IMG/VR virus record: IMGVR_UViG_3300045988_085326
Span: 64,001 to 128,000 of that record
DNA length: 64,000 nucleotides
DNA from: a virus
Strand: one strand, 5' to 3'
The notes under the pieces were generated by a model that was given only the letters and a program-made list of their open reading frames with translations, was not told the DNA's origin and ran no database searches. Shown piece by piece: positions 2,452 through 46,804 of this stretch. The position numbers and the translations under genes are program-made. The first letter of the stretch is position 1; each line of letters begins with the position of its first letter.

Positions 2452-2647
2452 TTAATGTAGCTAACTCCTCTTCAAGCTGATTGATTTGTGCTCTCAAATT
2501 TTCTCTATAAGTCTTAATCTCTGCATATTCGATGTCAGAGATTAAGCCTTCAGAATATTTAAGAGCTTTATAGTCAGAATTAGTAAGTAACTGTTTTAAT
2601 GCAGTTATTTCACCATTAATTTGGTCTGCTCTTGTATTCATTTCCAT
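2444..2647 (-). CDS. small coiled-coil protein, 67 aa, unknown function
   Basis: ORF with heptad-like LKQLL...LEEEL pattern. Translationally coupled to 2011..2451. Confidence 0.4.
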   Translation of the reverse strand: MEMNTRADQINGEITALKQLLTNSDYKALKYSEGLISDIEYAEIKTYRENLRAQINQLEEELATLNE

Positions 2648-2676
2648 ATTCTTATATCCTTTCTATTCATCAAAGT

Positions 2677-16400: not shown

Positions 16401-18618
16401 AAGACCAACTATAATCAGATAACTCAGTTAAAGTTGGATACATAGGTACTTTTTGTCCAGATATTGTATTAGGTACAATGCGACAAAAGAATTCAGTACC
16501 ATTAGTTCCTGCATCTCTCTCTTTAGTAAATACTAAATCAGTTTTTGCGGACAAACTTATGCCTTTATAGTTAATCATTACTTGAATATCATTATTATTC
16601 TTAGTAATATCATATCTATCTTGAATCTCATAAGCAAAAGACATAAAGTCTCTATATATTCTAATTCCTCGTTCTAAATCTTCTTCATAATTTTCATAAG
16701 AATTAGGAATTTGAATCATAGTATTATCAATAGGAACAATCCATTGAATATCACTATGTTTAATAATTTCATCATCAATACGATTTCCTAAATTATCATA
16801 AACACTAAATGTAAGTGCTTTAATTTCAATAGGAGAGTCAACTGCGTTACTTGCTGGACTAACACCATTTTCATCATACTTAAACACACAAGAGCCATCA
16901 TGAATAATCATAGTATATGAACCTTCCGCGGTCAAGCTGTTCGTAAGTACAATAGATGCAGTTCCAAGATATAAATTGCCTTGATATACTGTACATTGAT
17001 ATGTGCTAAAATTTGTAATACTATTTACATTTAAGTTCCAAATAGTATTTTTATCTACTCTTGTAATTTTATCATATTTATTTAATTCTGCTTTATACCA
17101 ATTCAATCTATCTCTATTTGGTTCAAGTGGAACAAGTTCTTTTTGAATATTATCTAATAATGTATAATAATTATTCCATGCTTCTAAATATTCTTTATTA
17201 ATATCAGATGTATCGCTAATACTTTCAAAATTCCCTACATTATTAGTTACCGCCCATGAATATGTTAAATTATTATCTTCTTTTCCGTTCACTAAACATC
17301 TCAATGTTGGGTATCCAATATCAAAATAAAATTTAGTTCCTTCATTTGAATCAATAGTAATATCATATCCAGATGCTAAATTTTTAATAACAATAGTTTT
17401 TGTAATAACAGTTCCATCATAAACTACTGCACATTTGTATTTAACTTCTTTTGCTATAATATCACGTTTAGATACCGTCCATTTATATGAAGATGGAATC
17501 CATTCCACTACTTCTGGGTCTGTATCTGTAGCCTTTTTAATAACAGTATAGTCGTTTAAACATTTCCATCCTTGTCCACCAAACTTATTATAGTAAGTGC
17601 TTTTAGATGTAATACCTACATGCTCTATGAACCAATAGAAAGGAAGTTGTTGGGATTTATTATCAATAACCTTTCCTTTAACACGGACTTGAGCTTCAAT
17701 ACTTCTTGTATCTGAAATTAAAGAAGTGCTATCAAAATAAATACCTTGTGGAGTATGAAAAGTTAAACTATAATTACTTAAATCATCTTCACTTAAACGC
17801 TCTGCTCCACATAATTCTATATCTTTAATAAATATATCATCAATACATTGATTATCTGGTTTAGTATTAGGAAAATCATAACAGAATATACTAATACTTT
17901 CTATATCAATAAAATTTTCTCCATCAATATCAAAGATACCATACTGTCTTGTATCATATAATATTTTATATGGATTTCCGCTCATCTTATCAATATCTAT
18001 AGTATAATATCTTGTTACAATAGAATTATTAGTATTATCAGTGAAGTTTAATGCAAAAATAAGACCATAATTTCCTCTAAACTGTTGCTCTGCGGGAAGT
18101 GCAGTTCTAATTACAGCTCCGCAAATAATAGTTTGTTGATTTTTAATATATTCATTAATTGCAGTTTTATTCAAATTAATCAAGTTTTGATTTACAGTAT
18201 ATTGCTTACTATATAAAACTTTAACTTGTTTATTTTGTCTATATGACTGTAAGTTGAAAGAAGCAGATGTATTTATAATACAGTTATTGCCAACAATCTG
18301 GTATGCTTCATCGCCTTCTACTGTTGCCACATAGTTAATTCCTAATTTTTTAGTTGTGCCTAAAATAGTTTTATCAGTCTCTGTATTATTACCAGGAATT
18401 AAAATATATACAGTTGAACCATTTGGATAAGTAACTTCTGAATTACTTGAATATGCATAGAAGGTACTGTCTTGGTATTTAACTTTATATTTTCCTATTG
18501 TTGCATCTATACAACTAATTACAGTAGCTTGAATAGTTTTATCATAATTTGCTTGGTCTATTGCTCGTTCTACGATAATTTCAATAGCGTCACAAATTTG
18601 TTGTTCTATCATATTCAT
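13456..18618 (-). CDS. large tail fibre/host-specificity protein, 1720 aa, internally repetitive C-terminal half
   Basis: Repeated ~40-aa units (IYS..K..L.S..IGFYLS.DGLSL; KFYADN.G..RVGNGAVA; GG.IGGW.I...L) typical of phage fibres. Own sigma-A-like promoter at 18646..18674. Confidence 0.6.
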   Translation of the reverse strand: MNMIEQQICDAIEIIVERAIDQANYDKTIQATVISCIDATIGKYKVKYQDSTFYAYSSNSEVTYPNGSTVYILIPGNNTETDKTILGTTKKLGINYVATVEGDEAYQIVGNNCIINTSASFNLQSYRQNKQVKVLYSKQYTVNQNLINLNKTAINEYIKNQQTIICGAVIRTALPAEQQFRGNYGLIFALNFTDNTNNSIVTRYYTIDIDKMSGNPYKILYDTRQYGIFDIDGENFIDIESISIFCYDFPNTKPDNQCIDDIFIKDIELCGAERLSEDDLSNYSLTFHTPQGIYFDSTSLISDTRSIEAQVRVKGKVIDNKSQQLPFYWFIEHVGITSKSTYYNKFGGQGWKCLNDYTVIKKATDTDPEVVEWIPSSYKWTVSKRDIIAKEVKYKCAVVYDGTVITKTIVIKNLASGYDITIDSNEGTKFYFDIGYPTLRCLVNGKEDNNLTYSWAVTNNVGNFESISDTSDINKEYLEAWNNYYTLLDNIQKELVPLEPNRDRLNWYKAELNKYDKITRVDKNTIWNLNVNSITNFSTYQCTVYQGNLYLGTASIVLTNSLTAEGSYTMIIHDGSCVFKYDENGVSPASNAVDSPIEIKALTFSVYDNLGNRIDDEIIKHSDIQWIVPIDNTMIQIPNSYENYEEDLERGIRIYRDFMSFAYEIQDRYDITKNNNDIQVMINYKGISLSAKTDLVFTKERDAGTNGTEFFCRIVPNTISGQKVPMYPTLTELSDYSWSLNYQTPLANRFFRVQLWHNESKVLDSVTSARSTEGKQATIKWSILQNKYNAGVLDSSGLIVNESTGIFTYSGYRNDSPAHIIKAEVEYDGVVYYATIPLITVKMYNNDYRVNLKEGTGFLTAVYSSDGRRPRYDNSYPFELTVTQKISGYDEDISLKTTSAYVVDYEWKYLGRIYEKEWLSSINLGDRLLETCLVNQKAVKPLDDYDGQCVTNAIEGTIRKSGTVIGRIHIPVHLMLNRYGNSAINGWDGNSVNIDSDGGFILAPQVGAGIKENDNSFTGVIMGKVKEANQSGADIGLIGYAKGVRSIFLDAQTGKAVFGANGKGQITIDPTNNTARIYSGNFVYRPNGTGTGMEIDLTTPQIRFGSGNFEVNKEGYITAKGGGSIARWQITDTELYSPAPYSGRKLTLDSVNTKIYSGLKTVLDSNTIGFHLSPEGLGLVSSGGGKILMKTSDNTPVIYSNNHSSLTSSAVGFYLSQDGLSLRSNYTKDGSTVASSLIFSTTGEPEIYSNSKNALTSTRIGFYLSGNGLSIGSKFYADNNGIMRVGNGAVANTGKHWEINGDSSNSYIKYGDMGDTNSVYISTGMISLGKKFYADNTGVVRVGNGAVAASGRYWTIDGGSESYIAYNTNASYLSTSDNIVSIKDSAPSSSVYLGTDGIRLGKKFAVDRSGNMLAKYIKATGGTIGGWIISSNKLSATDGNMELQSNGTLKGGSSYSWSINSAGTATFNRIKADKDGTIGNCTISKNGIYSSSDAGSWHINANGTASFNAITATGGKIGGWTINTSTLTGGAMTLNSNGSMSGTNWSITAAGKASFSDINVTGGSITLGGSTLNASGTKLTAGKTTVGSKSLQTYVEDLAVGKLTAADVTITASLDVGNSTYYLRMGQGTKNPEVSGLNIGSKGIRVNNGKSGQTHSINFVSSINGLTVSVHKGSIAGLETSLITSVTVKIDYSTRSISFYDGIHTAITDASGASKSDTGS

Positions 18619-18645
18619 TGCTATATTCTACTCCTTTTCTCTCTT

Positions 18646-18674
18646 ATTCTAACATAATTTTATTTTCTTGTCAA
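18646..18674 (-). promoter_or_regulatory. sigma-A-type promoter upstream of the 1720-aa fibre gene
   Basis: Minus strand TTGACA-17-TAGAAT, just downstream of the tape measure terminator hairpin (AAGGGAGGGCATTAGTCCTCCCTT + T-run). Confidence 0.5.
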
Positions 18675-18728
18675 GTTTATTTAAGATAAGTGACCAAAAT
18701 AAGGGAGGACTAATGCCCTCCCTTATTT

Positions 18729-21700
18729 TTACTTTTTAGTCTTAAATGCTCGTTGTGATGCGATATTAACAAGATTATTAAATGCATCTTCAATCTCTTG
18801 TGAATTTTGAACATTAGGGAATGAAGCTTCAATATGCACATTCTGTTCAAGAGTATCAGATGCTGTGGAAATGCCGCTCATAGGAATACCAAATCCAGTT
18901 GAAAGACTAAATAATCTATCCATAATATTTGCGTTTAAATTATTTAACATACCAGCCATATCTCTAACAATTCCAATAGCTGTTAAGAAATTAGATGTAT
19001 CATCGTCATTTAATACAAGTTCTTTTTTATGTAAGAACGCTAATTTTCCACTACTATCTCCCCAATCACCTGTGTATCCACCAGTATCATATCCGCTGAT
19101 TTGGCTTTGTTTTAACCAACCATACGCGGAATCTGATGATTGAACGTGAATAGGATATGGAGCACTTGGATTTAAGTGAGTAATAGTAACTTTCTTTCCA
19201 GGTCCGCGGCTTCCAGTAGGTTTTGTTCCGTATGAATCATAGTAATATAATCCACCTGTATAGGTAACTACATCACCAACTTTAGGAACTCCATCTCCTC
19301 CGCTTCCAGAGCCGCCACCGGAACCTCCTCCAGAACCGCCAGAACTACCTGAGTCTCCGCCTGAACTACCACCACCAAAATCATCTCCTGCAGCCGCTGC
19401 GGCTTCTTTCTGAGCTTGAACAAATGCATAAGCTGCTTCAGTTGCAGCTATAGCTGCAGCTTGAGCTTCTTCATATTTAGCTATTAAATCTTCTAATTGA
19501 GCAATGACATCTAATATTGCATCTATTTCTTCCATATATTTGTTAATTAAATCATCATTCGCATATAATAAATCTTGTGCTTTCTCAATATTCTCGTCAT
19601 AGCCCTCAGATATAGCATCAAAATCAACACCTGCCGCGCTCTCTAGTTCATCAAATGAATCTTGATAATCATGAGTAGCTTGGTCTAATTCTTCAAATGC
19701 ATCTTTACATGTAGGAATAAATCCGCCCTCTCCTGCAAATACATCCGCCATGTGCTGTACGCCAGAATCCCACTGAGGGATTAAATCATTAATAACTAAA
19801 TCTTTTTCAGCATCAGTTAAATCTCTGAATGCTTCTATATCTTTACCTGTCATCTCTCTAAAGGAATCAGCATCTGCTGCGTATAATCCTTCAAGAGTCA
19901 TGAATGTAGATTCATGTAGGTTTTGTTTAATAGTTTCATTTTGCTCAACAAGACCGTTAATTAGTTCTCCATACTGTTCAGTTAATAACTTAGCTCTTTC
20001 TTGTCTTTCTTCGTCAGTCAATGACATATCTGACATGATTTCCGCATACTTCTCTTGGAACTCTACATAATATTCATAAATCTCATTTAAGTTCTCTTTA
20101 TACTTATCTTTATCAAAATTATATAAATCATTTTGTGCGGCAAGTAAATCTTGCTGTGCTTGAGCAATGCTATCTTCGTCAGAAACAAATTGATAACTAT
20201 AATTTCCTTGAGAATCACGTCTCAATCTCATTTTTGACTTATTTTGTTGAGCTTCTTCAAGAGCAATCTGTTTTAACGCAATTTCATATAACATATTTGC
20301 ACGGTCTACATCATATTGCGTTAATTTATCCTTATCCTTCAACATACCTAACTGTTCATTCATCATGTCATTTAGTTTCTGTTGCGCGGATAAGCTATCT
20401 GTCTGGTCTAAAGCTTCAAGATACTTATTCTCCAAATCTTGAATAGCATACATGCTATTAATTGTATCTAAATATTGGTCAGCATTTTTATTGATTAAAT
20501 CCCATTCATCATTTACATAATCTAAACCTTTTCCATTTGTTACTTTTTTATTTAATTCATCAAATACTTGATTAATTGTATTTTGGTATTTATCAATAAT
20601 ATTTTGAATAGAATCTTCAACCTTTTCGTTTAACTTCTCTAAGGCATCCATCCATTCTTCTTCCCATTTCTCTTTAGCTTCAGGGTCTGTTTCTTTCTGC
20701 ATCATTTCTTCTGCATATGCTACACGTTTCTTTAAAAAGTCTAATTCTTGATTATTATTTTGTTCAATTTTCTCATAATATTGTGCCATTTGAGCATATG
20801 CTTTATCTCCATAAACAAGTCCAACTACATTCATATCATGATTTAATAAATCTTTAATATATTCATATTGGTCTACTTGTTTATCGAAAGCTTCAACTGC
20901 CTCATCAATCATATCTAAGTAAGATTCTTTTATTTCATCAACTAAATCTACAACATCTTCTAACTGTTGCATTAGTTCTTCATAATATTTTTGCAAATCT
21001 TCCATAGCTTGAGCTTTATTATCTCCGTACACATCTGCCCAGCCATTATCATTAATTTGCTTAATTTGGTCCATAGTATCATTGATTTGGTCAGTTAATT
21101 TTTGAATAGGTCCAGTGCCAGTTCCTTCTGTATTAAAATAAGAAGTGTAATCTTTTAATTTAGATTTTGCTATACCTAAAATATTATCATCTTTAATTCC
21201 ATCTATTACTTTACGTTTAAATTCATTGAAATCTCTTTCAGCTTCCGCCATGTCCAGTCTTAATTCAACTTCCATAGTAAATTTCTGAATATTAATTTCA
21301 ATTTCTTTATCAACCGCATCTTGAATAGCATCTTCTATTTCTGGAATAAATGATGATACCAATTCATCGTAACGCTCCATTTGAGACTTAAATGTCTCAT
21401 AATCTTCTTTTGCAGCTTCTACTGTTGTTTTGAAGCCTTCTTGTTCTTCTGCAGACATAGCATTATATTGTGCAATAACACTATTTACATAATCTAATTT
21501 AGCTTGTAATGCAGAAGCATAATTAGTCATATATCCATTAGAATCAAAAGCAACACCTTGCATAGCAAGAAGGTTTCTTAACTCTTGAGCTTCAGCTTTA
21601 GCAATTTGTAATTTAACTTCATAAGCAGCTTTTTGTTTTTCTAAAATATCTAACTGTTCATTTAAGTTATTAATTAAATCCTGTCCATATAATTTTTTCT

Positions 21701-24700
21701 GCTGTTTATCTAATCTGCTTAAATTAGTTTCAAGGTCTTCAAGTTCCAAATTAATGTCATGATATCTATCAGCCTCATCTTCAAGATATTCCATATAATC
21801 TGGGTCTTTTTTGCTTGAACTACCGCTATCACCCGAAGTTCCTTTTCCAGAACTAATATTAGAAAATGTTTTATCTAAATCTGTTCCAGTTGCTCCAATT
21901 TGAGCAATCATACCCTCAATATCATTTGCTGCAGCTCCAGCAGAATCTGCCAATTCAACATATTGTTCAGCTAGTCTTGCCCAAGTTTCACTGCTTTTAC
22001 TATTAGCTGAATTAAGAGCATTTTGAGTTTGCTGAATAATTGAAGCTTCACTAGATTGTCCTGTAGAACCAGAATAATTTATTCCTACTGTCCCTGTAGT
22101 TGCAGTGCCTCCATTAGCAACTGCGTTCATATTAGCTATTGCAATAGATGCTCCATCATAAGATGAATCTGCCATAGATTGAAATGCACTTTGCCAATTT
22201 TGAGCAACAGTTTGAGCATTAATATTAGAACTATCTGCAATTTCTACTGCGTTATTCATCTCAGATTGAGAAGACTCTTGACTATTATACTCTTGCAAAT
22301 TTGCTAATTCAGAAGAAATTGTTGCACGCGCGGCTGCTGCTTCTTCATCAGTTGCGGTTTCATTGTGAGCTAATATTAATGCAGCATTAGCCATATTCTG
22401 ATAAGACTGCTGTTTTGCTCTTAATAAAGTTGCTTGATTATTTAATTTATCAATCGTAGCTTGCGCATCTGCTTGAGCTTCAGATTCCGCCATACCCATT
22501 GCTGATTGTACTACTTGTTCATTTAATTGAACAGTTCCATCAGCTAATGTTGTCATACCTTCTAAAATACCTGGGAAAGTATTATTTAATGCTCTTACAT
22601 CTTCTGCAGCGACAATAAAATCTTCTCCAATTAAAGAAGCTTTTTCTTTTATATCATCAAAAGCATTAGAAATACTGTTAAACTCTTGTTCTGCTTCTGA
22701 ATGAATTGCTACATCAATTTCATACTCTTGATTTAATAAATCATCCATTGCAGTCTCAAAAGCTTCTGGGTCTGCATCTATATCAATAGTAATATTACCA
22801 TTATCTTCTGAAATAAATTCATCAACTTTTTCTTTTGCTTCGTCCGCTTGACTAATTAAATCTTCTAAGTTAATTGCATAAAGCTTATTTTGAACTATTT
22901 CAAGTGCTTCCGCATATTCTTGAGTACCTACTAACCAAGTCTTACTTAATAAATCTGCTGCAGCTGTTAAATCTTCATCTTTATCTTTAATATTATCTAA
23001 TTGATTTAATAAATCAGCATATTCTTCACTTTCGCCAATATTACTTGATGTAATATCTCCAGTTTGAATACCACTTATTAAAGTTTCAATATCAGATTTA
23101 GCAGATTTTACAGAATTTAAAATTTTTTCTTCCCAAGCAGAAGAATCGTATTTATCTAATCCTGCATTCCAAGCATCTAAAAATTCCTCTGATGTTCCTA
23201 AACCTAAAGCCTCTAAATCATCTTCTGTTAATCCAAGAGCTTCTAATAAAGAATCTTCATCTAAGCCAGATAATTGAGCTACTTCTTCTGGTTTTAAATC
23301 ATTAAAAATACTTGAAAAATCAATAGAAGAAATATTTCCATCTGCATTTGCTAAAGTATTTAATAACGCACCAGTAATATTAGCATCAAATTGTTTTCCA
23401 AATTGGTCAGCACCTTGTTGTAATTTATTAAGAGCATCAACAAAAGCAGTACCAGTATCTTCAGAAGTTTGTGCAAATTGTTCTGTTAATTGGTCAATCT
23501 GAGCCTGTCTTGCTAACGCATGACGCATAACATCGTCAGATACAGCATCTACAATTTTAGTTCCTGTCTCATCTTTTACAGTACCTTTATTTATTCCACT
23601 CTTATAAGTAAAATCAGTTGTATCATAACCTAATACTTTTTCTGCATAAAGCATAGCAAGGTCTTCATCATCGTCAATACTATAATTCGCCCCAGCCGCC
23701 TTTAAAATTTCATTAGTTTTTGAATTAGAGGTTGCTTTAGAGACATCAATCGAAGCAATCGCATCTGCTAAAGATTGTTCATTAGATGGACCATTTGCTA
23801 AAGCTGTTGTAGTTGCAGCAATTAACTGATTATATAAAGATTCATTAGTATTACCTTCTTCATCAGTAGCCATACCTTCTAATCTATCTCCATAGGTATC
23901 TTCAACTACTATACCCATGATTTGTTCGGCATAATATTCATTAGCTTTTTTAGCATCATTCATTGAATCTGCTAAATCTTCTAATGCTTGTCTATTAGAA
24001 ATAATACTATCAATATTATCTGTTACTGCCTTATCTAATGAATTTCCCATTGCGAGTAACTGTTCTTTAAGCTGTTCATCAGAAAGTGCAACTCCATTAT
24101 TAGCTTCAGTTAAATTTGCTATTGCTTGTGCAGCATTTTGTAATTCATTATTCGTAAAATTACGGAAAATTTCTGTACCTTCAGAATTTATTCCAGTATC
24201 TACGACAGAGCCAATATCTCGACCTAAATTAGTTGTATTACTCTTTAATTGTGCTTGATTTGAAATAATATTTGCACCATATGTTTGAGTTTGAGCTTTA
24301 CTTACAGCTTTCTCTGCATCTTCTATCGCTTGATTTAAAGCATTTTCATCAATGGTAATTAAACCATTATTTATACTCCATTTATCAAATAAACCATAAG
24401 TTTCAATTAACTCTCTTGCTTTATCATTTGCATTCTCTAATGCTTCTGAATATTCATCTGTACCTTCAGTTAAATCTTCTAAAGCATCAATAGCATCATC
24501 ATATTCAGAAATATTATTTTTTAATTCAGTTGCAGCATTATTTAATTCATTATATCTTTCAGTTAAATTTTTAACCTGATTAGCAGCTTCTTCTGCAGCG
24601 TTTGCATCTGCATTATATGCATCAATGCTTAATTTAACTACTGCTACAAGTGCTCCTACTGCTGCGGCTATTGCAATAATAATTGGAAGAACTGGAGCTA

Positions 24701-27293
24701 AAGCAGTCCATAACATTCCAATTGCTGCAGTTAAACCTGTAGTCGCGGCTGTGGCACCAATTTCCGCCCCTGTAACACCTGCTAAACTTAATGCTATTGT
24801 AGATAAGCCTGTAGCTAATCCAGGAATAATCTTAGCAATATTAGTAAAGTTCATTATCAATATTGGCAAAGAAAATAATAATGTTGTAATAATAGCTTCA
24901 GCTTTTTCACCAGCAGTTAAATCTTGATTGTTTAATGTCTGAATAATACCAGATAATGTAGTCATTAAAGATACTACAGTCATTAAACCAGAAACCGCTT
25001 GAGATAATAATTGCTGTCTCTTAGCTTGTTCTGTTGTTTGGTCAATTATTCTTTGTCTAGCTTGTTGCTCTTGTTGTAACTGTTCTAAATGACCATTTTC
25101 TATATTTTGTCTGTATTGTAATGCTTGGTTAGCATCTGCAATACCTTGCTCATTCTGTTGGATAAGTCCTCTTTGTTGTTCAATTAAATTATTAAGGTCT
25201 CCCTCTTCAAGTGCCTCATTTTGAACTGTTTCCAAAATCTGTAATTGTTCAGCTGAGATTCCCGCTAATAATTCTGCGGTTTCACTATTCTCATTAAAAA
25301 TTTCTTCTCCAAGTTGAGCAATTCTTGTGCTATGGGTCATCCAAGTCTCTTCAGACTGATTACATAATTCTAAATATTCTAATAAATTTCTCTGGGCTTG
25401 AACTTCTTGTTGTTTAAATTCAATACGATTAGTAATAGTTTGAGTGCTATCTTTTTCAGTAAGGTCAATTCCTTTTAATAACTTACCATAATTAGTTGTT
25501 TCTTGAATTTCTTGCTCTAATAATCCAATTTTTTGTTGTTCAGCAGTTAATTCATTATATTGTTCAGATGTTAATGCTTTACGAACTTGTAACAACTGAT
25601 TAGCAATAGTTGCCTCTTTTTCAACAGCTAGTTCATTTGTAACATTCTGCCCAGATACAGCATGAGCATCAATAATTTGTTGCTTCATAGCAATAGCATC
25701 TGAATTTGTACGATAAGCATCAATATTTATTAAACTCTGATTTATAGCTTTACCAATTTGATTACTAAAAACATTAGCAATAACACTGCCCATATGAACA
25801 ATAGAGTTCATGCCACCATTTAAACCAGTTAAATAGTTATTAAAGATTTCTAATGCTCCAGTTGCTGTATCCATGAAATCATTAACAGTATCCTGGTCAA
25901 ATAAAATATCATAAGTTTTATCTGCTTCAGTTCTTAATTGCTCTAAATGTGCAGCTGTAGATTCCATATAAATATCTTGCTGATGCTGTAATGTTTCAAC
26001 TGCGTCAACAGAAGTATTAACAGCTTCATTATACATATCCCAGTTTTCAAATAAAGCAAGCAAGTTATTATATTGTCTCTTACCAGCTAAATCAATAGCT
26101 AAAGCTTGCTTTTCTGCTTCAGACCAAGCTCCACTATTCCATTTATTACCAACTTCTTCAATAACCTCTCCAAGGTCACGCATAGAACCTTCTGCATCTA
26201 AAATATAAACACCCATAGATTCAAGAGAAGAAGATACTTCACCTAATGAAACACCAAATTCATCTTCTCCATCTAATTCTAGGTCTTCCATACGCGCAAA
26301 GATAGTTTTAAATGCAGTACCCGCGGATTCTGGCGCTTGACGAGTTACAGATATAACTGTAGATAACATACCATTTAATTTATCTATATCTACACCCATC
26401 GCGGCCGCTGCAGATGCTACCTTACTCATACCTACTGATAATTCTTCTAGGTCTGATGCAGTTGTAGCAGCTACTGCCGCTAATTTATCAACGTATAGTT
26501 CAGTTTCTTCTGCTGTAACTTTATAACCGTTCCATACAGCAGTGAGTTGTTCTGAAACTTCTTCACCAGTTTGACCAGTTACATTAGCTGCCTTTAAAGT
26601 AGTTTCTGCTCTTGCCTGAGCTTCTTCATCAGATAAACCTTGCTGATAGTAAATTAAAGATGCTTGTGTATAATCTAAAGTACTCGCACCTAAAGCTTTT
26701 GCCGCACTATTAGCTTGTCTAGCAAAAGTTTCCATACTTTCAGCGCTTTTATCTGTTACTATACGAATATCATTTAATGAACTATCCAAATTCTTAGTAT
26801 AAGTATAAGCCTGTTGGACAGAATTTGTTAAATTATTAAAAATACTAGATGTAATACCCCATTTAACAGTATTAGACATCGTAGTAGCCATATCATCTAA
26901 AAGTTTATTACTTTGTTTTAATTGTAAGTTAGTATTTAAAACACTACTAGCAAATTTATTATATGCAGTTGCAGCAGTTGTCGCTCCAGTACTACCTGCA
27001 TTTCCTGCTAAGGTAAAAGAAGCTCTTAACTGCTCAACACTACCATAAGTAGCTTTAATGCTATTATTTAATTTACTTAAATCTAATTGATTTAATTTAC
27101 CATTCCAAGCATCGTTAAGAATAGTTTGTAACTGTTGAGCCGCTTTAGAAGCTTCTTTTAATTCAGTAGTTAAAGTTCCACTTTTTGATGCTTTATTAGC
27201 TTCTAATTGGACTTGTCTTAAAGCATTTTGAATTTCATTTAATCCTGCTTTATCAACAGTATAACCAACTTGAAAATTAATTCTATTAGCCAT
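18729..27293 (-). CDS. tail tape measure protein, 2854 aa
   Basis: Long coiled-coil-rich ORF with a central hydrophobic/TM block and a Gly/Ser-rich linker (GGGSSGGDSGSSGGSGGGSGGGSGSGGDG) before a C-terminal globular domain. Sits upstream of fibre/baseplate genes. Followed by a strong terminator at ~18695..18730. Confidence 0.8.
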   Translation of the reverse strand: MANRINFQVGYTVDKAGLNEIQNALRQVQLEANKASKSGTLTTELKEASKAAQQLQTILNDAWNGKLNQLDLSKLNNSIKATYGSVEQLRASFTLAGNAGSTGATTAATAYNKFASSVLNTNLQLKQSNKLLDDMATTMSNTVKWGITSSIFNNLTNSVQQAYTYTKNLDSSLNDIRIVTDKSAESMETFARQANSAAKALGASTLDYTQASLIYYQQGLSDEEAQARAETTLKAANVTGQTGEEVSEQLTAVWNGYKVTAEETELYVDKLAAVAATTASDLEELSVGMSKVASAAAAMGVDIDKLNGMLSTVISVTRQAPESAGTAFKTIFARMEDLELDGEDEFGVSLGEVSSSLESMGVYILDAEGSMRDLGEVIEEVGNKWNSGAWSEAEKQALAIDLAGKRQYNNLLALFENWDMYNEAVNTSVDAVETLQHQQDIYMESTAAHLEQLRTEADKTYDILFDQDTVNDFMDTATGALEIFNNYLTGLNGGMNSIVHMGSVIANVFSNQIGKAINQSLINIDAYRTNSDAIAMKQQIIDAHAVSGQNVTNELAVEKEATIANQLLQVRKALTSEQYNELTAEQQKIGLLEQEIQETTNYGKLLKGIDLTEKDSTQTITNRIEFKQQEVQAQRNLLEYLELCNQSEETWMTHSTRIAQLGEEIFNENSETAELLAGISAEQLQILETVQNEALEEGDLNNLIEQQRGLIQQNEQGIADANQALQYRQNIENGHLEQLQQEQQARQRIIDQTTEQAKRQQLLSQAVSGLMTVVSLMTTLSGIIQTLNNQDLTAGEKAEAIITTLLFSLPILIMNFTNIAKIIPGLATGLSTIALSLAGVTGAEIGATAATTGLTAAIGMLWTALAPVLPIIIAIAAAVGALVAVVKLSIDAYNADANAAEEAANQVKNLTERYNELNNAATELKNNISEYDDAIDALEDLTEGTDEYSEALENANDKARELIETYGLFDKWSINNGLITIDENALNQAIEDAEKAVSKAQTQTYGANIISNQAQLKSNTTNLGRDIGSVVDTGINSEGTEIFRNFTNNELQNAAQAIANLTEANNGVALSDEQLKEQLLAMGNSLDKAVTDNIDSIISNRQALEDLADSMNDAKKANEYYAEQIMGIVVEDTYGDRLEGMATDEEGNTNESLYNQLIAATTTALANGPSNEQSLADAIASIDVSKATSNSKTNEILKAAGANYSIDDDEDLAMLYAEKVLGYDTTDFTYKSGINKGTVKDETGTKIVDAVSDDVMRHALARQAQIDQLTEQFAQTSEDTGTAFVDALNKLQQGADQFGKQFDANITGALLNTLANADGNISSIDFSSIFNDLKPEEVAQLSGLDEDSLLEALGLTEDDLEALGLGTSEEFLDAWNAGLDKYDSSAWEEKILNSVKSAKSDIETLISGIQTGDITSSNIGESEEYADLLNQLDNIKDKDEDLTAAADLLSKTWLVGTQEYAEALEIVQNKLYAINLEDLISQADEAKEKVDEFISEDNGNITIDIDADPEAFETAMDDLLNQEYEIDVAIHSEAEQEFNSISNAFDDIKEKASLIGEDFIVAAEDVRALNNTFPGILEGMTTLADGTVQLNEQVVQSAMGMAESEAQADAQATIDKLNNQATLLRAKQQSYQNMANAALILAHNETATDEEAAAARATISSELANLQEYNSQESSQSEMNNAVEIADSSNINAQTVAQNWQSAFQSMADSSYDGASIAIANMNAVANGGTATTGTVGINYSGSTGQSSEASIIQQTQNALNSANSKSSETWARLAEQYVELADSAGAAANDIEGMIAQIGATGTDLDKTFSNISSGKGTSGDSGSSSKKDPDYMEYLEDEADRYHDINLELEDLETNLSRLDKQQKKLYGQDLINNLNEQLDILEKQKAAYEVKLQIAKAEAQELRNLLAMQGVAFDSNGYMTNYASALQAKLDYVNSVIAQYNAMSAEEQEGFKTTVEAAKEDYETFKSQMERYDELVSSFIPEIEDAIQDAVDKEIEINIQKFTMEVELRLDMAEAERDFNEFKRKVIDGIKDDNILGIAKSKLKDYTSYFNTEGTGTGPIQKLTDQINDTMDQIKQINDNGWADVYGDNKAQAMEDLQKYYEELMQQLEDVVDLVDEIKESYLDMIDEAVEAFDKQVDQYEYIKDLLNHDMNVVGLVYGDKAYAQMAQYYEKIEQNNNQELDFLKKRVAYAEEMMQKETDPEAKEKWEEEWMDALEKLNEKVEDSIQNIIDKYQNTINQVFDELNKKVTNGKGLDYVNDEWDLINKNADQYLDTINSMYAIQDLENKYLEALDQTDSLSAQQKLNDMMNEQLGMLKDKDKLTQYDVDRANMLYEIALKQIALEEAQQNKSKMRLRRDSQGNYSYQFVSDEDSIAQAQQDLLAAQNDLYNFDKDKYKENLNEIYEYYVEFQEKYAEIMSDMSLTDEERQERAKLLTEQYGELINGLVEQNETIKQNLHESTFMTLEGLYAADADSFREMTGKDIEAFRDLTDAEKDLVINDLIPQWDSGVQHMADVFAGEGGFIPTCKDAFEELDQATHDYQDSFDELESAAGVDFDAISEGYDENIEKAQDLLYANDDLINKYMEEIDAILDVIAQLEDLIAKYEEAQAAAIAATEAAYAFVQAQKEAAAAAGDDFGGGSSGGDSGSSGGSGGGSGGGSGSGGDGVPKVGDVVTYTGGLYYYDSYGTKPTGSRGPGKKVTITHLNPSAPYPIHVQSSDSAYGWLKQSQISGYDTGGYTGDWGDSSGKLAFLHKKELVLNDDDTSNFLTAIGIVRDMAGMLNNLNANIMDRLFSLSTGFGIPMSGISTASDTLEQNVHIEASFPNVQNSQEIEDAFNNLVNIASQRAFKTKK

Positions 27294-42267: not shown

Positions 42268-43443
42268 CTACTTTTTCTTATTTCTACAACATTTACAAAT
42301 ACTGTAGAATCCATCTTTAGAAGTCTTATTTTTACTAAAGAATCTATTATGAGCAAGTTTAACTTCACCGCATCTTGAGCATCTTTTCCATTTGCCGCGT
42401 TCTTGCATAGTATAATACCAAATAAGATAATCTTCTTGTGCTTGTTCAGCTAATAATTTAGGAATCTTATTTCTCCACAAAGAAGAAATATATTCTACTG
42501 AATGTTTAATTCCATGTTTTTTATTTAATAGCTCTTGTATTTCAATATTTTGTTTTCCGTCAATTTTATAAATAAGCAAATCATAATATAATGGATATTT
42601 ATCTTTTAGTGTTCGTTCAATTAAATTATCTAAATCTTCCATTAAATAATATGAATCACTACTAAATTTACCCCATGCATCCTCTTTTAATTTTGAATAA
42701 TTACATAATAATGCAGATATATGTTTTTGGTCAAATAAAGAAACAAGTTCTGTATTTTTTACTTGACCATCTTCTGTTATTGTAATTTTTCCATCTAATT
42801 GTAACTTAAAAAAACTCTTAGTTACATTCATCATATACATAGGTTGTCGATATGCACTTTTCAATACATATTGGTCTTGACGCATTTCGATAAGTTGTTT
42901 TTTTAGTAAAAATTTACGTTTACCAGTTGCCGCCTTAAACTGTTTTTCTACATTATCAATCGCATCACGTAAATCTTTTAAGCCAGGAATTTCTTTAATA
43001 TCTTCTTCAGTAATAGTTACTTTAGGCATAAAAATAATATTTTTATCATTTGCAATCATATTATAGATACCATCTTCACCATTTTCTAATTGCCCAGCTA
43101 ATCCTTGAAATGATGTCTCTCTCCTATTTACAGTTACCATTCTATTGTCAGTTAATATCTTTTTCTTTTTTCTTTCTTCTTTATCCATTGCAAAAATAAT
43201 GTAATCTGATAAAATTGTTAAATATTTATTAGTAAGCTGTTCAGGAGGCGTCTCATCAATAATTTTTTTAACTAATTCATTTCGCTCTTGCGGAGTTTGT
43301 AAAGAATAATCTAATTTACGAGCAGGTTTAATATTTTCTTCTATTAACTGCTCTTCTATATTCTCATTTTCATCTTGGTAGTCTTCTGTATCTGCCTCAT
43401 CTTCTTCCACTAGAGCTACTTCTTTTTCATCTAAATCTGCCAT
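42268..43443 (-). CDS. hypothetical acidic protein with C-terminal CxxC...CxxC, ~391 aa (start at MADLDEK with AAGGAG RBS)
   Basis: First gene of the leftward operon. The longer ORF start at 43485 lacks an RBS; ATG 43443 has one. Confidence 0.45.
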   Translation of the reverse strand: MADLDEKEVALVEEDEADTEDYQDENENIEEQLIEENIKPARKLDYSLQTPQERNELVKKIIDETPPEQLTNKYLTILSDYIIFAMDKEERKKKKILTDNRMVTVNRRETSFQGLAGQLENGEDGIYNMIANDKNIIFMPKVTITEEDIKEIPGLKDLRDAIDNVEKQFKAATGKRKFLLKKQLIEMRQDQYVLKSAYRQPMYMMNVTKSFFKLQLDGKITITEDGQVKNTELVSLFDQKHISALLCNYSKLKEDAWGKFSSDSYYLMEDLDNLIERTLKDKYPLYYDLLIYKIDGKQNIEIQELLNKKHGIKHSVEYISSLWRNKIPKLLAEQAQEDYLIWYYTMQERGKWKRCSRCGEVKLAHNRFFSKNKTSKDGFYSICKCCRNKKK

Positions 43444-43473
43444 AAGAGCGCTCCTTTCTTTTCTTCTAATTAT

Positions 43474-43502
43474 AGTATAGCACAAATTTTTTCTTTTGTC
43501 AA
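43474..43502 (-). promoter_or_regulatory. sigma-A-type promoter for the leftward structural operon
   Basis: Minus strand reads TTGACA-17-TATACT. Confidence 0.6.
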
Positions 43503-43522: not shown

Positions 43523-43551
43523 TTGATTTATTTAAAAATAAATGATATAAT
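43523..43551 (+). promoter_or_regulatory. sigma-A-type promoter for the rightward early region
   Basis: TTGATT-17-TATAAT. Divergent partner of the promoter at 43474..43502. Confidence 0.6.
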
Positions 43552-43584
43552 TATTATAAGATAAAAGTAAAGTAGGTGAATAAT

Positions 43585-44136
43585 ATGGTATTAAATGCAT
43601 ACGGTAGCGCGATTTTAAAAAGTGAAATGGATTTTTCTATATGGGCAATGAAAAAAGGAATTAAAAATCCAGTTGAAAAAAGAATAGAAAGTGAAAAAGA
43701 GGGAGAAACTGCTAAATACAATAAACTTATTGAAGAGGGATTTGAAGTTCATGTCAGTCCATTTATACATAGCTTTAATGGAGAACCATCTAAAAAACTC
43801 TACGATTGTATCAAAAGAGAAGGCGGACCTGAAGCAGAAGAAAATTATAAAATAAAAAGATTTTTATATCAATTCATCTATATTGCTAATATTATAGGAA
43901 TTGAATATGCTGAAAAATGGATTAATAGCTATAAAGAAGATAAATATAGACAAGAGGAATATACAAGAATGGTAAAAAATAAACCTAAACTTGCTTATTG
44001 TCATTTAAAAAGTTCTAATGGTCAATGTAGAATTGATTGTCCTTTTTGGAATGGCGGATGTCAGATATCAGTCGCAGAAGAGCAGCAATCCCGCGACCTA
44101 TTAGAAGAATATAAACCACTTGAACGGAGGAGATAA
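43585..44136 (+). CDS. hypothetical Cys-containing early protein, ~183 aa
   Basis: ATG with AGGTGA RBS. CHLKSSNGQCRIDCPFWNGGCQ. Confidence 0.5.
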   Translation: MVLNAYGSAILKSEMDFSIWAMKKGIKNPVEKRIESEKEGETAKYNKLIEEGFEVHVSPFIHSFNGEPSKKLYDCIKREGGPEAEENYKIKRFLYQFIYIANIIGIEYAEKWINSYKEDKYRQEEYTRMVKNKPKLAYCHLKSSNGQCRIDCPFWNGGCQISVAEEQQSRDLLEEYKPLERRR

Positions 44137-44309
44137 AATGGAAGCATTAGGACAAGGTTTGGAGCTCTTGGAGACGCAATAGGTTTTATTGGAGGATGGA
44201 TAGGTTTTGTTTGTATAGCAGGAATTGCGGCAAGCACTTTTCTTGTATATACAGGTAAAGCTACTCTTGAACAATTAAAAGATTTATTTAATAAGGATAG
44301 GAGATATCG

Positions 44310-44756
44310 ATGAAAGTCGCAGTAACAGGACATAGACCTCCAAGATTAAAAGGTAAAGAGCAAATTATAAGTCAGTGGATATATAATAAATTATTGGAAC
44401 TTAACAATAAAGATAAAATAACTGCCGCGTATAATGGAATGGCGGCAGGCGCGGACCAATTATTTGCTTTACAATGTATTAAATTAGGAATCCCAGTTTA
44501 TTGTGTTTTTCCTTATAATAGAAAAAAATATCACCCAGATGAACTTTATATTGTTGAGCGGGCAGCTGGCTCGATAGCGCTTCAGGACGAGTATTCCCGC
44601 GATTCTTATTATAAAAGAGATTGCTTTATGGTAGATAATTGTGATATTTTGATTGCAATATGGGATGGTATTCCACAAGGTGGTACTTATATCACTATTG
44701 ATTATGCAAGAAAACAAGGTAAACCAATTATTTATTTACCGCAAGGAATATTATGA
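44310..44756 (+). CDS. YpsA/DUF1273-family (SLOG superfamily) protein
   Basis: MKVAVTGHRP N-terminus, GMAAGADQ and C-terminal DILIAIWDG...GGT motifs parallel B. subtilis YpsA/YoqJ. AGGAG RBS. Confidence 0.65.
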   Translation: MKVAVTGHRPPRLKGKEQIISQWIYNKLLELNNKDKITAAYNGMAAGADQLFALQCIKLGIPVYCVFPYNRKKYHPDELYIVERAAGSIALQDEYSRDSYYKRDCFMVDNCDILIAIWDGIPQGGTYITIDYARKQGKPIIYLPQGIL

Positions 44757-45088
44757 ACAAAATTGTAATAATATGGTCTGGGGATGAAGAATTATTATCT
44801 AAAACTATGGAAAAATTAATAGTAGATAGCCAATGTTTTCTTTTTACTGTGATATGCGGCGGCACCGATGAAAGTAACCTTAAGTCTAGTTCAGGATATC
44901 GTTGGGCAATCCGCAATGGTGCTCCAGTGGAATTTATGATAGAAGCGGATGTGGAGAAACTATTAAATAAAATTGCCCAAACCGCGGACTATATTGTTTG
45001 TTATAACAATGGAAATCAATTAGTAAAAAGATTGATAATGAAGTTTAAGTCGCAAGGAAAGCATGGAACAGTGATTATAGGAGAATAA
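44753..45088 (+). CDS. hypothetical Rossmann-like protein, 111 aa (possibly second SLOG-like domain)
   Basis: Start overlaps upstream stop (ATGA). beta-alpha pattern IVIIWSGD...VICGG...DYIVCY. Confidence 0.4.
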   Translation: MNKIVIIWSGDEELLSKTMEKLIVDSQCFLFTVICGGTDESNLKSSSGYRWAIRNGAPVEFMIEADVEKLLNKIAQTADYIVCYNNGNQLVKRLIMKFKSQGKHGTVIIGE

Positions 45089-45089
45089 A

Positions 45090-45518
45090 ATGGTATATAC
45101 AAGTTATTTTGGAAAAATGAAGTCATTCCCGCCTAATATGATACCTATAGCGATATGTGGCGGAATCCCCGATTGGTATAAAAAGGGAATGATAGATAAG
45201 AGATGGCTATGGTATAAAAAGTTAGCTCCTAAATGGGAGTTTTTTCAAGTTTGGAAGCAAACGCATGATAATGATTATTATATTCGCAACTATAATACAT
45301 TAGTGTTAGATAAATTAGATGTGAATCGCATTGCCGCAGACATTCAACTTATGCTTCCTCTTGAAATAAGAGAGCAAATGACAAGTAGTATATGGTGTAG
45401 TGATAATATTCACGTTGCGCTTTTATGTTATGAAAAGCCAAATGATTTTTGTCATAGACATTTAGTTTCTAAATGGTTTAATGAACATGGATATAAATGT
45501 GAGGAATGGAAAGTATGA
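45090..45518 (+). CDS. DUF488-family protein (YeaO-like)
   Basis: MVYTSYFGK N-terminus and conserved C-terminal ALLCYEKPNDFCHRHLV (DUF488 LLC.E....CHR signature). Confidence 0.55.
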   Translation: MVYTSYFGKMKSFPPNMIPIAICGGIPDWYKKGMIDKRWLWYKKLAPKWEFFQVWKQTHDNDYYIRNYNTLVLDKLDVNRIAADIQLMLPLEIREQMTSSIWCSDNIHVALLCYEKPNDFCHRHLVSKWFNEHGYKCEEWKV

Positions 45519-45697
45519 AAAATAAAGTATTAGTAATAAGTGCAGAAAATTATTGTCGAGAAATAGAAGACAAAATTAATGAAGAATTAGAAAAAGGTTG
45601 GTTAATTGAACTTTTTTATGAAGCACGTGGAGATAATGGGAATAAAATAATTGTTACCTTATATAAGGAAGAAGAGAATGCGGAAGGCGACGTATAA
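45506..45697 (+). CDS. small hypothetical protein, 63 aa
   Basis: Translationally coupled ORF. Confidence 0.4.
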   Translation: MESMKNKVLVISAENYCREIEDKINEELEKGWLIELFYEARGDNGNKIIVTLYKEEENAEGDV

Positions 45698-45857
45698 AGG
45701 TGGAAACTTTCCTATTGTTCCTGGAACGGTATGTGATGTAAGATTAATTTGGGATAATGATTGCGAATATGTTTATGTATATGTATGGACATTAAGCGGA
45801 AGTATGAAGTGTGCTTATGATGGAAGAACAGAAATGGAGAAGGAGTGGCAGTTATGA
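45651..45857 (+). CDS. small hypothetical protein, 68 aa
   Basis: Translationally coupled ORF. Confidence 0.4.
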   Translation: MLPYIRKKRMRKATYKGGNFPIVPGTVCDVRLIWDNDCEYVYVYVWTLSGSMKCAYDGRTEMEKEWQL

Positions 45858-46063
45858 TAGCTAAATTTATTGGGCAAGATGGAAGTCTGGGATTTAGAAC
45901 TGGAAGAAAATATATTATAAATATAGAAAGGGATAATAATAATAATTGGATTTGGGTAAAAGAATTATTTGGAAGAAGTTGTCCATATCAAAGTATGAAT
46001 ACTTTAAAAAAGAATTGGGATATTCCTTCAAATAAATTTCATCCTGCAAGACAGTATAGATAG
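45845..46063 (+). CDS. small hypothetical protein, 72 aa
   Basis: Last gene of the coupled operon. Terminator ATACCCCGGGGTAT+T-run at ~46156..46176. Confidence 0.4.
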   Translation: MAVMIAKFIGQDGSLGFRTGRKYIINIERDNNNNWIWVKELFGRSCPYQSMNTLKKNWDIPSNKFHPARQYR

Positions 46064-46311
46064 CTATTCGTTTTTAGATTTTCAAAATGCATTTGGAGAT
46101 TTTTTGGACGAGGCCAAATCATTTTCACAAAGTCAAAAAATTTTTTTCCCGAAATATACCCCGGGGTATTTTTTCTAGTACGTCAGATTCTTGTAGACTT
46201 CTTTCAAGAGCAAGATAAATAGACAGCCCCACATAATAAAGAACTGCGGGAAGTCGTTTAATGAGCATAAGGTTTAGCTATCTTATGCTAACACGCTTAC
46301 TCATAAGAATA

Positions 46312-46378: not shown

Positions 46379-46553
46379 CGCTGGCTCGCGTGCGGTCATG
46401 GCGAGCCGCGATTCTTGTCAAGTAGTAATGTTGTACAATTTTTTTGCCAAATGTTTGTGCATTATTATAATAGATTCTATCCCGAAATGACTTGACACGT
46501 AGAGTGTTATGTGATATAGCATAATTACAGAAAGGGAAAGAGAGGTAACAAGC

Positions 46554-46700: not shown

Positions 46701-46804
46701 TCTTTCAACAAAAAAGTCTAATAAAACGCTTGACACACAAAGATATTCATGCTATAATAAATACATAAAGAACAAAGAAAACAACACAAAGAGAGGTTGA
46801 TAAT

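Follow-up and report, generated by a model that had tools for sequence, protein, structure and literature searches.

We have identified, in the window (the 64,000-nucleotide stretch of viral DNA analyzed here), an operon in which three adjacent genes encode a SLOG protein of the YpsA/YoqJ family (O1), a small protein with a degenerate SLOG-like domain (O2), and a DUF488-N3a protein (O3). As a tentative working proposal, this three-protein core of the operon may process a nucleotide derivative and have a counter-defense role. Both DUF488 and the phage YpsA-like SLOG proteins are widespread families, and the locus, together with the fusion proteins of related phages, provides a concrete three-protein set and a testable hypothesis, namely, the sequential processing of a ribose-phosphate signal.

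Operon layout and transcription signals

The six open reading frames of the original prediction (O1 to O6) are all present on the plus strand within 44310-46063 in the ORF listing of the window, with the predicted coordinates and tight packing; however, the operon has eight genes instead of six, because two more genes abut O1 upstream, joined by a 1-nt spacer and an ATGA junction. The first (43576..44136, plus strand) encodes 186 aa if read from GTG 43576 or 183 aa from ATG 43585, which is the more likely start. Its product is Cys rich, with a C-terminal 4-Cys motif, and gave no family match in domain and phage-family profile searches; homologues occupy the equivalent position in five phages (L163, L003, L165, L168, and L185), and the dN/dS values are 0.07 to 0.36. 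The second (44138..44313, plus strand) encodes a small single-pass membrane protein of 58 to 59 aa; it follows gene 1 after a 1-nt spacer, and its stop codon overlaps the start of O1 (ATGA). Intact ORFs (58 to 64 aa) occur in L163, L003, and L168. In the window, a 1-nt deletion breaks the gene; aligning the window with L163, a relative at 99% identity, placed the lost nucleotide near 44161. Stop-codon readthrough or recoding of the open frame at 44137-44313 was dismissed, since this close relative differs by a 1-nt indel, and the frame is therefore explained by a simple frameshift or an assembly error.

When the junctions were read from the sequence, O1/O2 was ATGA, O2/O3 was a 1-nt spacer rather than the overlap originally claimed, O3/O4 was ATGA if O4 starts at ATG 45515, O4/O5 was a 20-nt overlap, and O5/O6 was ATGA. 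Over the whole operon there are three or four ATGA junctions, two 1-nt spacers, and one 20-nt overlap. Each gene has a Shine-Dalgarno-like motif; with all genes on one strand and tightly joined, this is the arrangement of translational coupling, which reaches upstream to 43576. No plus-strand terminator was called in the operon interior by the terminator scan, the promoter-like matches there were weak (9-10 of 12), and the total of promoter-like sites in the promoter scan equaled the shuffle expectation.

The operon begins at a sigma-A/sigma-70-like promoter site at 43523..43551 on the plus strand (TTGATT-17-TG-TATAAT, TG extended), which is kept in four phages (the window phage, L163, L003, and L168) despite their diverged coding sequences. 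A promoter had been predicted at 44200-44300; the scan found no promoter-like site in that stretch, which is membrane-protein coding sequence. On the minus strand, a divergent TTGACA-17-TATACT site (43502-43474) faces a phage sigma-like gene; the operon runs divergently from both this gene and the packaging/structural (terminase/portal) module. Downstream of the operon lie many small genes with consensus promoters. Because of the conserved sigma-A-like promoter, the divergent sigma-like and packaging genes, and the promoter-bearing small genes downstream, it is plausible that this is an early operon, as was originally suggested, and that host RNA polymerase drives it; its boundaries and promoter had been misplaced.

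Comparison with two or three diverged phages revealed purifying selection on O1 to O4 and O6 (dN/dS, 0.03 to 0.36; dS up to >1). Two opposite-strand ORFs (44061-44333 and 44484-44717) were dropped because they overlap conserved plus-strand genes that are under such selection. A megablast search with this region gave zero matches among 50,697 phage records.

The O1, O2, and O3 proteins

O1 (44310..44756, plus strand, 148 aa) is, judged by its homologues and family profile, a YpsA/YoqJ-family SLOG protein, as had been predicted. A direct Pfam search with O1 returned only subthreshold matches and not PF06908, the best being DprA (19.9 bits against a cutoff of 29.6); homologues with 29 to 40% identity carry PF06908 and PF02481 and are annotated as "YoqJ." A profile built from the O1 family matched Bacillus subtilis YpsA (2nx2) with an E value of 3.2e-16 and ShosA with an E value of 8.5e-9, and O1 matched phrog_289 at 7e-14. 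The family-invariant TGHRP, GxxxGxD, R103, WDG, and GGT motifs are retained; an alignment of 44 sequences that includes O1 shows no or almost no variation at T6-G7-H8-R9-P10, G43...G47-x-D49, W118-D119-G120, and G124-G125-T126. O1 accordingly has each of the SLOG pocket motifs: a GHR-type loop after strand 1, GxD/E in helix 2, and a GG(T) loop after strand 4. In the annotated phage collection, YpsA-like genes occur in 249 phage records.

O1 belongs to the same SLOG family as B. subtilis YpsA (2nx2) and YoqJ of the SPbeta prophage, with GHR and GxD conserved. Cellular ypsA, which is coupled to gpsB, influences cell division (PMC6459960); O1, by comparison, is shorter, is encoded by a phage, and has O2 and DUF488 as its coupled genes. 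Second among the sequence and fold matches of both O1 and O2 came ShosA, the DprA-like antitoxin of the ShosTA defense system (PDB 8zva and 9vzo), a DNA-binding protein of about 300 aa whose partner is a PRTase toxin (PMC11961720). The locus described here lacks a ShosT-like gene; a related phage, L168, does have a PRTase-like gene downstream. Homologues of genes that occur in related operons (MazG-like, PRTase-like, a 137-aa insert of L003, and a basic micro-protein of ~45 aa) were also sought in the window, and none was found. The SLOG domain of ThsA (type I Thoeris) and the LOG cytokinin-activating phosphoribohydrolases are host defense effectors or metabolic enzymes; O1 and O2 have no sequence match to them beyond the superfamily level, and their binding and catalytic motifs are missing from O2.

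O2 (44753..45088, plus strand, 111 aa) had been described as Rossmann-like, and its fold agrees: it is a three-layer alpha/beta sandwich of the Rossmannoid kind, built on a 5-stranded sheet and most similar to SLOG members. We refine this description to a small, divergent SLOG-like family that is described in no library. The SLOG glycine-rich loops (GGxxGxD after strand 2 and GGxGT after strand 4) are missing, and only 4 of 61 family members matched YAcAr, each weakly; for these reasons, O2 is best called a degenerate SLOG-like protein rather than a working SLOG. Conservation in the 61 members is limited to L30, F31, A52, G56, P58, D79, and G102-K-H-G105, the last being a near-invariant GKHG motif of the family's own. 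The domain is rare, with about 100 clusters among 1.84 billion proteins; tblastn against the 50,697 phage records gave zero matches, so it is absent from the cultured phages of that collection. A narrow O2 alignment found 4 viral loci, and a broad alignment contained no conserved stretch of 7 to 10 columns.

The identification of O3 (45090..45518, plus strand, 142 aa) as a DUF488 protein was confirmed by a Pfam match to PF22751 (DUF488-N3a) at 42.2 bits, above the threshold of 27 (E value, 1.1e-10), and all close homologues carry PF22751. The fold is rhodanese/PTP-like, with matches to rhodanese, diphthine-synthase-type methylases, RapZ-C, and PTP/DUSPs. C23, K44, W55-K56, C113-Y-E-K, and F-C121-H-R123 are invariant, and the central strand ends in a conserved Cys that is followed by a loop and then a helix with His/Arg, in the P-loop geometry of active PTP/rhodanese-like proteins. 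O3 therefore shares with the rhodanese-phosphatase superfamily its Pfam family, the conserved Cys/His/Arg residues, and the set of folds that the superfamily unites; however, the setting with SLOG and O2 is just one of several contexts of DUF488-N3a. Our search found 632 DUF488-N3a homologues, whereas within the collection of 50,697 phage records, relatives occurred only in Lak megaphages. A literature search returned no functional study of DUF488 and no full-text match for "DUF488-N3."

Gene fusions, neighborhoods, and proposed function

In related phages, the O2 domain is fused to each of its neighbors: P0211 and P0213 join a YAcAr SLOG domain to O2, and P0274 joins O2 to DUF488-N3a. In the syntenic phage L168, the divergent sigma-like gene is followed by a 157-aa protein, the membrane peptide, the YAcAr-O2 fusion, and DUF488-N3a; in L167, it is followed by an O2-DUF488 fusion. 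The 194-kb phage L007 has O2-like, YAcAr SLOG, and DUF488 genes inside 2 kb, and in further lineages (L047/L053, L042/L045, and L082), a YpsA-type SLOG gene lies 30 to 590 nt from DUF488-N3a. The pairing of SLOG with DUF488 that was originally noted is thus found in several lineages, and the Rosetta-stone fusions support cooperation; however, adjacency is exceptional, since a SLOG gene lies within 5 kb at 17 of 162 DUF488-N3a loci (7 of 56 clusters at 70% identity; ~10%), and at 79 further viral loci with a YpsA-like gene, neither DUF488-N3a nor O2 was found nearby. For 150-kb phages that have both genes, this rate is close to what chance clustering of accessory genes could produce.

Phage systems that pair a SLOG protein with a member of the rhodanese-phosphatase superfamily have already been predicted. 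For example, viral SLOG and DUF4326 domains have been predicted in silico by comparative genomics to process NAD+/ADP-ribose derivatives (Iyer et al., Viruses 2021, PMC7824862, and 2022, PMC9503650), and viral YpsA-like SLOG domains have been predicted to counter cADPR-type signals (PMC9503650, PMC7824862). We confirmed a DUF4326-YpsA fusion in WNM70115 of Myxococcus phage Mx1 (PF14216, 3e-14; PF06908, 4.9e-13). The locus described here likewise combines, in a phage, a YpsA-type SLOG with a small domain of the rhodanese-phosphatase superfamily; it differs in that the partner is DUF488-N3a, the genes are separate, O2 lies between them, and the Macro, NADAR, and Nudix partners are not present. 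The DUF488-N3a/O2 version thus adds a variation to a theme that has so far been a prediction. A comparison by hhalign of the DUF488-N3a alignment with the single DUF4326 domain of Mx1 gave a probability of 0.2%; as this is a weak test with one sequence, the sister relationship of DUF488 and DUF4326 rests on the literature.

The SLOG-DUF488 cooperation that the fusions support also agrees with these published predictions. It can be envisioned that a gut Bacillota phage of ~100 kb transcribes the operon early from the host-type promoter at 43523-43551, thereby delivering O1 as a YpsA-type SLOG with an intact ligand or catalytic pocket, O2 as a probable pseudo-dimer partner of O1 that tethers O3, and O3 as a rhodanese-phosphatase-superfamily enzyme that probably uses Cys113 with His122/Arg123 to act on a ribose-attached phosphate. 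Such a module would most likely bind and dismantle a host ribose-phosphate small molecule made during infection, for which the candidates are Thoeris/TIR-type immune signals or toxins that derive from NAD+ or ADP-ribose; the N-glycosidic bond would be where the SLOG protein recognizes or cleaves the molecule, and DUF488 would then take off the phosphate or transfer it. If confirmed, this would represent an enzymatic phage route for silencing NAD+-derived immune signaling and would give a function to two large families.

A stronger form of this proposal, which we regard as improbable, is that O1, O2, and O3 are physically one three-part enzyme that catalytically destroys TIR/Thoeris-type ADP-ribose-derived signals, with the pseudo-enzyme O2 (an adaptor of a new, SLOG-derived family) docking an active SLOG protein, as N-glycosidase or sensor, to DUF488 as a Cys-dependent phosphoesterase. 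If true, phages would have a new enzymatic mechanism against Thoeris, viral YpsA-like SLOG and DUF488 proteins would gain their first assigned activity, and the mix-and-match hot spot beside the phage sigma-like gene would be a counter-defense island.

The neighborhoods of DUF488-N3a elsewhere suggest another chemistry. Thg1-like tRNA-repair enzymes (PF04446, 2.9e-29) are encoded 1 to 3 genes from DUF488-N3a at 10 loci, a 678-aa DNA-modification protein with Amidoligase_2, DAM-like-phage, and GNAT-phage-like regions adjoins it at 6 loci, and chromosomal copies in Alphaproteobacteria adjoin recN/xseA-like housekeeping genes; in view of these neighbors, the substrate of DUF488-N3a may be a nucleic acid end. 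DUF488-N3a would then process or modify an RNA- or DNA-terminal phosphate, for example, in phage DNA modification or in tRNA repair after attack by a host anticodon nuclease, and the SLOG proteins would bind nucleic acid, like DprA, or supply or remove a nucleotide-derived group. In 2023, Burroughs and Aravind reportedly predicted that the RapZ-C/DUF488/DUF4326 clade acts on RNA termini and DNA ends. DUF4326, moreover, has been predicted to bridge NAD+ signaling and DNA modification (PMC7824862), and the O1-family profile also matches the DNA-binding proteins DprA and ShosA (PMC11961720). However, O1 falls in the YpsA clade and not with DprA proper, and no Thg1, ligase, kinase, amidoligase, or methylase was found in the operon or in the ten largest ORFs that follow it; we consider end processing rather unlikely here. 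Should nucleotide-signal processing be refuted, the Thg1 and DNA-modification contexts point to such end chemistry.

Alternatively, the three genes may have no joint function. At the first-operon position of related phages, there is SLOG only, DUF488 only, O2 only, SLOG with O2, or all three, and in L003 the gene order is shuffled, with DUF488 last. Each family therefore can stand alone at the equivalent syntenic position, as would be expected of independent accessory early genes at a gain/loss hot spot where dense packing yields fusions, and the ~10% adjacency would fit as well. We judge this unlikely, since the rare O2 domain occurs in two different in-frame fusion architectures and a different SLOG family (YAcAr) substitutes for O1 in the triad, findings that are hard to explain without selection for co-function.

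The commonest occupant of the early position is a YpsA-like SLOG alone, which would also suit a takeover of host physiology by O1, for example, through inhibition of cell division, with the other genes unrelated. Overproduction of YpsA blocks division in B. subtilis and Staphylococcus aureus in a manner that requires the GxD/E motif, and the authors considered that YoqJ, the prophage paralogue, might act likewise (PMC6459960). O1 keeps GxD; however, even YoqJ does not conserve several of the residues on which the division phenotype of YpsA depends (PMC6459960), and the O2 and DUF488 fusions would be left unexplained, making this reading quite improbable.

Least likely of all is the signal sponge of the original prediction, in which O1 and/or O2 would stoichiometrically sequester a cyclic nucleotide or cADPR-type signal, like Tad1, Tad2, and Acb2: the invariant catalytic-type residues kept by O1 and O3 make enzymes more likely than a sponge on sequence grounds, coupling to a Cys-phosphatase-like enzyme suggests turnover, and a structure-based survey of viral signal-sequestering proteins mentions none of SLOG, YpsA, DprA, Rossmann, and DUF488. 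The likeness to Tad1, Tad2, Acb1, and Acb2, as early phage proteins that neutralize nucleotide immune signals, is a functional analogy in the proposed role only; the folds of these proteins are not known to be related to those of O1 to O3.

Micro-genes O4 to O6 and the 3' element

O4 (45515..45697, plus strand) encodes a conserved micro-protein of ~60 aa. An alternative start lies at 45506; the start at 45515 is favored because GAGGA is located 9 nt upstream and because of the N termini of the homologues in L003 and L168. O4 has homologues in L003/L164 and L168 (dN/dS, 0.03 to 0.13) and no family match in domain and phage-family profile searches. O6 (45854..46063, plus strand, 69 aa) is likewise conserved, with homologues in L003/L164 and L168 (dN/dS, 0.14 to 0.27) and a weak match to phrog_9372. 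The ORF between them, O5 (45678..45857, plus strand, 59 aa; alternative TTG start, 45651), is weakly constrained (dN/dS, 0.68 to 0.83); it has 30% identity to its positional counterpart in L164, a different gene occupies its position in L168, and its coding status appears less certain. The original prediction counted the three micro-proteins as module members; however, O4 to O6 are specific to this clade and do not accompany SLOG or DUF488 beyond it. Together with gene 1 and the membrane peptide, they are co-transcribed clade-specific early genes and are not assigned to the three-protein module.

Downstream of O6 is a conserved noncoding 3' element (46085..46180, plus strand) of ~95 nt that is near-identical in the window, L163, and L003 and partially conserved in L168 and L120. 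A structured RNA was rejected as an explanation of this block, since RNAalifold gave -2.6 kcal/mol without useful covariation and there was no Rfam match. The element includes a hairpin (46156-46169) followed by a U-tract (U6, 46169-46174), and a strong terminator had been predicted at 46156-46176. The stem has 5 bp with 2 GC pairs, its dG of -5.9 kcal/mol is no better than that of shuffled sequences (z, -0.03 to -0.5), the terminator scan did not call it, and the hairpin is not kept in L120; with its U-tract, it is plausible as a weak terminator. Immediately upstream of the hairpin, the element contains one copy of a TCCCGAAAT repeat (46147-46155), a motif observed 8 times on the plus strand against an expectation of 0.28.

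Families and linkage of O1, O2 and O3

The typing of O1 (44310-44756) as a YpsA/SLOG protein was supported: by itself O1 gave SLOG-type Pfam matches that were sub-threshold, and its family profile matched Bacillus subtilis YpsA with an E value of 3e-16. O1 homologues grade into PF06908/PF02481 proteins annotated as YoqJ, and all family-invariant residues are retained in O1. O2 (44753-45088) had no match in Pfam, PHROGs, NCBIfam or PADLOC; its predicted Rossmann-like character was borne out by an AlphaFold model (pLDDT 92), which is a five-stranded Rossmannoid. O2 was tied weakly to SLOG families by comparison of profiles and by iterated profile searching, and YspA/DUF2493 SLOG proteins were its top viral matches. 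Its glycine-rich loops are gone, a GKHG motif being conserved in their stead, and the family is small (104 representatives in a search of 1.84 billion proteins). O3 (45090-45518) scored above the Pfam DUF488-N3a threshold, in keeping with its original assignment to DUF488, and has 632 homologues; it retains the invariant Cys113-Tyr-Glu-Lys and Phe-Cys121-His-Arg. In the O3 model, Cys113 ends a strand that is followed by a loop and then a helix, an arrangement like that of the P-loops of PTP and rhodanese. The fold neighbours of O3 are a rhodanese-like domain, diphthine-synthase-type methylases, RapZ-C and PTP/DUSPs, groups brought together in the rhodanese-phosphatase superfamily.

Natural fusions were recovered via an exhaustive O2 profile search: P0211 and P0213 join a YAcAr-type SLOG domain to O2, and P0274 joins O2 to DUF488-N3a. 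In the related locus L168, the P0211 fusion occupies the same syntenic slot and is immediately followed by DUF488-N3a; in L167, the sigma-like gene is followed first by an O2-DUF488 fusion, and a 194-kb phage (L007) has its O2-like, YAcAr and DUF488 genes inside a 2-kb stretch. Taken together, these fusions and loci indicate that O1 can give way to a different SLOG family with O2 and DUF488 retained, and that O2 can be fused to either partner. A survey of DUF488/SLOG neighborhoods did yield some pairs, but a SLOG gene lay within 5 kb in only 17 of 162 DUF488-N3a loci (7 of 56 clusters at 70% identity), and neither O2 nor DUF488 was nearby in any of 79 additional viral YpsA-like loci. Within the same phage group, the slot is occupied variously by SLOG alone, DUF488 alone, O2 alone or SLOG with O2. 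We interpret O1-O2-O3 as a facultative, functionally linked trio that is connected through O2 and lies in a hot spot of gene gain and loss.

Transcription unit and putative regulatory repeats

All six predicted ORFs were found on the plus strand. Start/stop overlap, predicted for every junction, was present at O1/O2, O3/O4, O4/O5 and O5/O6, but O2 and O3 are separated by a 1-nt spacer. O1/O2 and O5/O6 are ATGA junctions, as is O3/O4 provided that O4 starts at 45515, the start suggested by its homologues and a Shine-Dalgarno motif; O4 and O5 overlap by 20 nt. In comparisons with phages whose synonymous sites are near-saturated, dN/dS was 0.03 to 0.36 for O1 to O4 and O6, which are therefore real genes; O5 is weakly constrained (0.68 to 0.83).

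The promoter had been placed at 44200-44300; however, this stretch is coding and belongs to a membrane protein gene. Three related loci (L163, L003 and L168) have an intact gene for a 58- to 64-aa single-pass membrane protein in that slot (44138-44313 in the window), ending in a stop that overlaps the start of O1. Compared with contig L163 (99% identical), the window copy has lost 1 nt near 44161, which shifts its frame; past the break the frame remains open up to the ATGA at O1. The gene is thus either a true pseudogene or was assembled wrongly. A 183/186-aa Cys-rich gene precedes the membrane protein gene, with a 1-nt spacer. The sole good promoter-like site upstream of the operon, at 43523-43551 (TTGATT-17-TG-TATAAT), lies in a divergent intergenic region kept across four phages with protein identity down to 45 to 50%. 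From this site and the two coupled upstream genes, we infer an eight-gene transcription unit rather than the six-gene operon of the original prediction. The 186-aa protein, the membrane peptide and O4 to O6 are confined to this clade.

At the 3' end, the supposedly strong terminator (46156-46176) has a 5-bp stem with two GC pairs and a dG of -5.9 kcal/mol, no different from shuffled sequence. Because U6 directly follows the stem, this hairpin may act as a weak terminator. Around it is a block of ~95 nt, almost identical in the window and L003, in which a copy of TCCCGAAAT lies. This 9-mer has eight copies within 9 kb (46147, 46480, 48021, 49467, 50581, 51804, 54036 and 55092), every one on the plus strand, versus 0.28 expected. 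Seven of the eight lie inside or just upstream of sigma-A-like promoters, and the leader gtatttacaaggtaaggaaagagagg is common to several of these promoters. The exception is the copy at 46147, which belongs to the operon's 3' element and is followed by no recognizable promoter; the operon's own promoter has no copy. The early transcription units probably use TCCCGAAAT as an operator or regulatory site. A GC-rich hairpin at 46383-46407 (GGCTCGC ... GCGAGCC, 11-nt loop), whose stem is kept and whose loop differs in L003, lies past the operon and ahead of the promoters that come next (46444-46471 and 46730-46758).

Possible functions of the trio

Viral SLOG domains are mostly YpsA-like and are predicted to sense or cleave cADPR-type signals (PMC9503650, PMC7824862); a SLOG fusion of the published kind was confirmed here in Myxococcus phage Mx1. 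That viral SLOG pairs in general with a domain of the rhodanese-phosphatase superfamily, and that such pairs act in counter-signaling, are already published as predictions. What is new is the partner, which is DUF488-N3a here in place of DUF4326, the previously undescribed, degenerate SLOG-like O2 family, with two fusion architectures, and the mix-and-match hot spot that adjoins this gut-phage group's sigma-like gene.

By analogy with these predictions, we tentatively favor a role in which O1-O2-O3 would enzymatically process a host signal or toxin containing ribose-phosphate. In support of this, O1 and O3 have kept their catalytic-type residues intact, the promoter is early and host-type, and the locus behaves as a hot spot. 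The main rival is nucleic acid end chemistry, in support of which DUF488-N3a elsewhere adjoins recN/xseA-like genes, Thg1-like tRNA-His guanylyltransferase homologues (PF04446; L021/L024, 3356-4231, and eight other loci) and a 678-aa Amidoligase_2/DAM-like-phage/GNAT-phage-like protein (L151, 5406-7442, and five others). The Thg1-like and amidoligase neighbors hint at RNA-end or DNA modification roles for the DUF488-N3a family. A pure sponge, a division inhibitor resembling YpsA (PMC6459960) and mere co-location of the three genes are also possible. The main value of the set is as a compact, testable candidate.

Other neighbors were seen in related phages. L168, which encodes the YAcAr-O2 fusion, has a weak MazG-like pyrophosphohydrolase match within the operon (6437-6790) and a weak PRTase-like match downstream (8290-8778), both below the Pfam cut-off; neither gene has a homologue within the window. 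YpsA-PRTase gene pairs have been described for cellular YpsA (PMC6459960). A conserved basic microprotein of ~45 aa (K..A.RGLYE.MWG.KPR.Y), absent from the window, lies directly beside SLOG, O2 or DUF488 in several phages (L005, 4867-5004; L165, 5305-5508; L166, 5308-5445; L171, 2455-2577; L174, 5463-5603).

The phage and its left-hand module

The window is a portion of a phage genome. Its minus-strand block (about 300 to 43485) carries the terminase large subunit, portal, very large structural ORFs, a YonG_N-like gene and the sigma-like gene (42268-43485, phrog_5767); small genes occupy the plus strand from 43576 onward. By portal identity, the closest records are an unannotated human-fecal phage (71%), gut phage Phass-1 (41%) and Enterococcus phages of ~140 kb (32%). 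The operon proteins are 94 to 99% identical in one 102-kb IMG/VR contig. The same operon, with DUF488 93% identical and the O2 ORF truncated (50 aa), occurs in L083 (JAEDOA010000004.1, 36.9 kb), which is binned in an Erysipelotrichaceae MAG; this hints at the host unless the phage contig was mis-binned.

Two giant ORFs of the structural module (13456-27293, minus strand) encode 1720 aa and 2854 aa, the former having no match in PHROG. A complete diversity-generating retroelement lies at 689-3489 on the minus strand, comprising a reverse transcriptase (689-1465, phrog_1423), an RT-2 RNA (1454-1688; Rfam, 94 bits), a template repeat (1785-1909) and a variable repeat (2691-2815) at the C terminus of a 270-aa ORF (2677-3489); a 146-aa ORF between the repeats (2011-2451) is a possible Avd. 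All 20 mismatches between the two repeats fall at template adenines.
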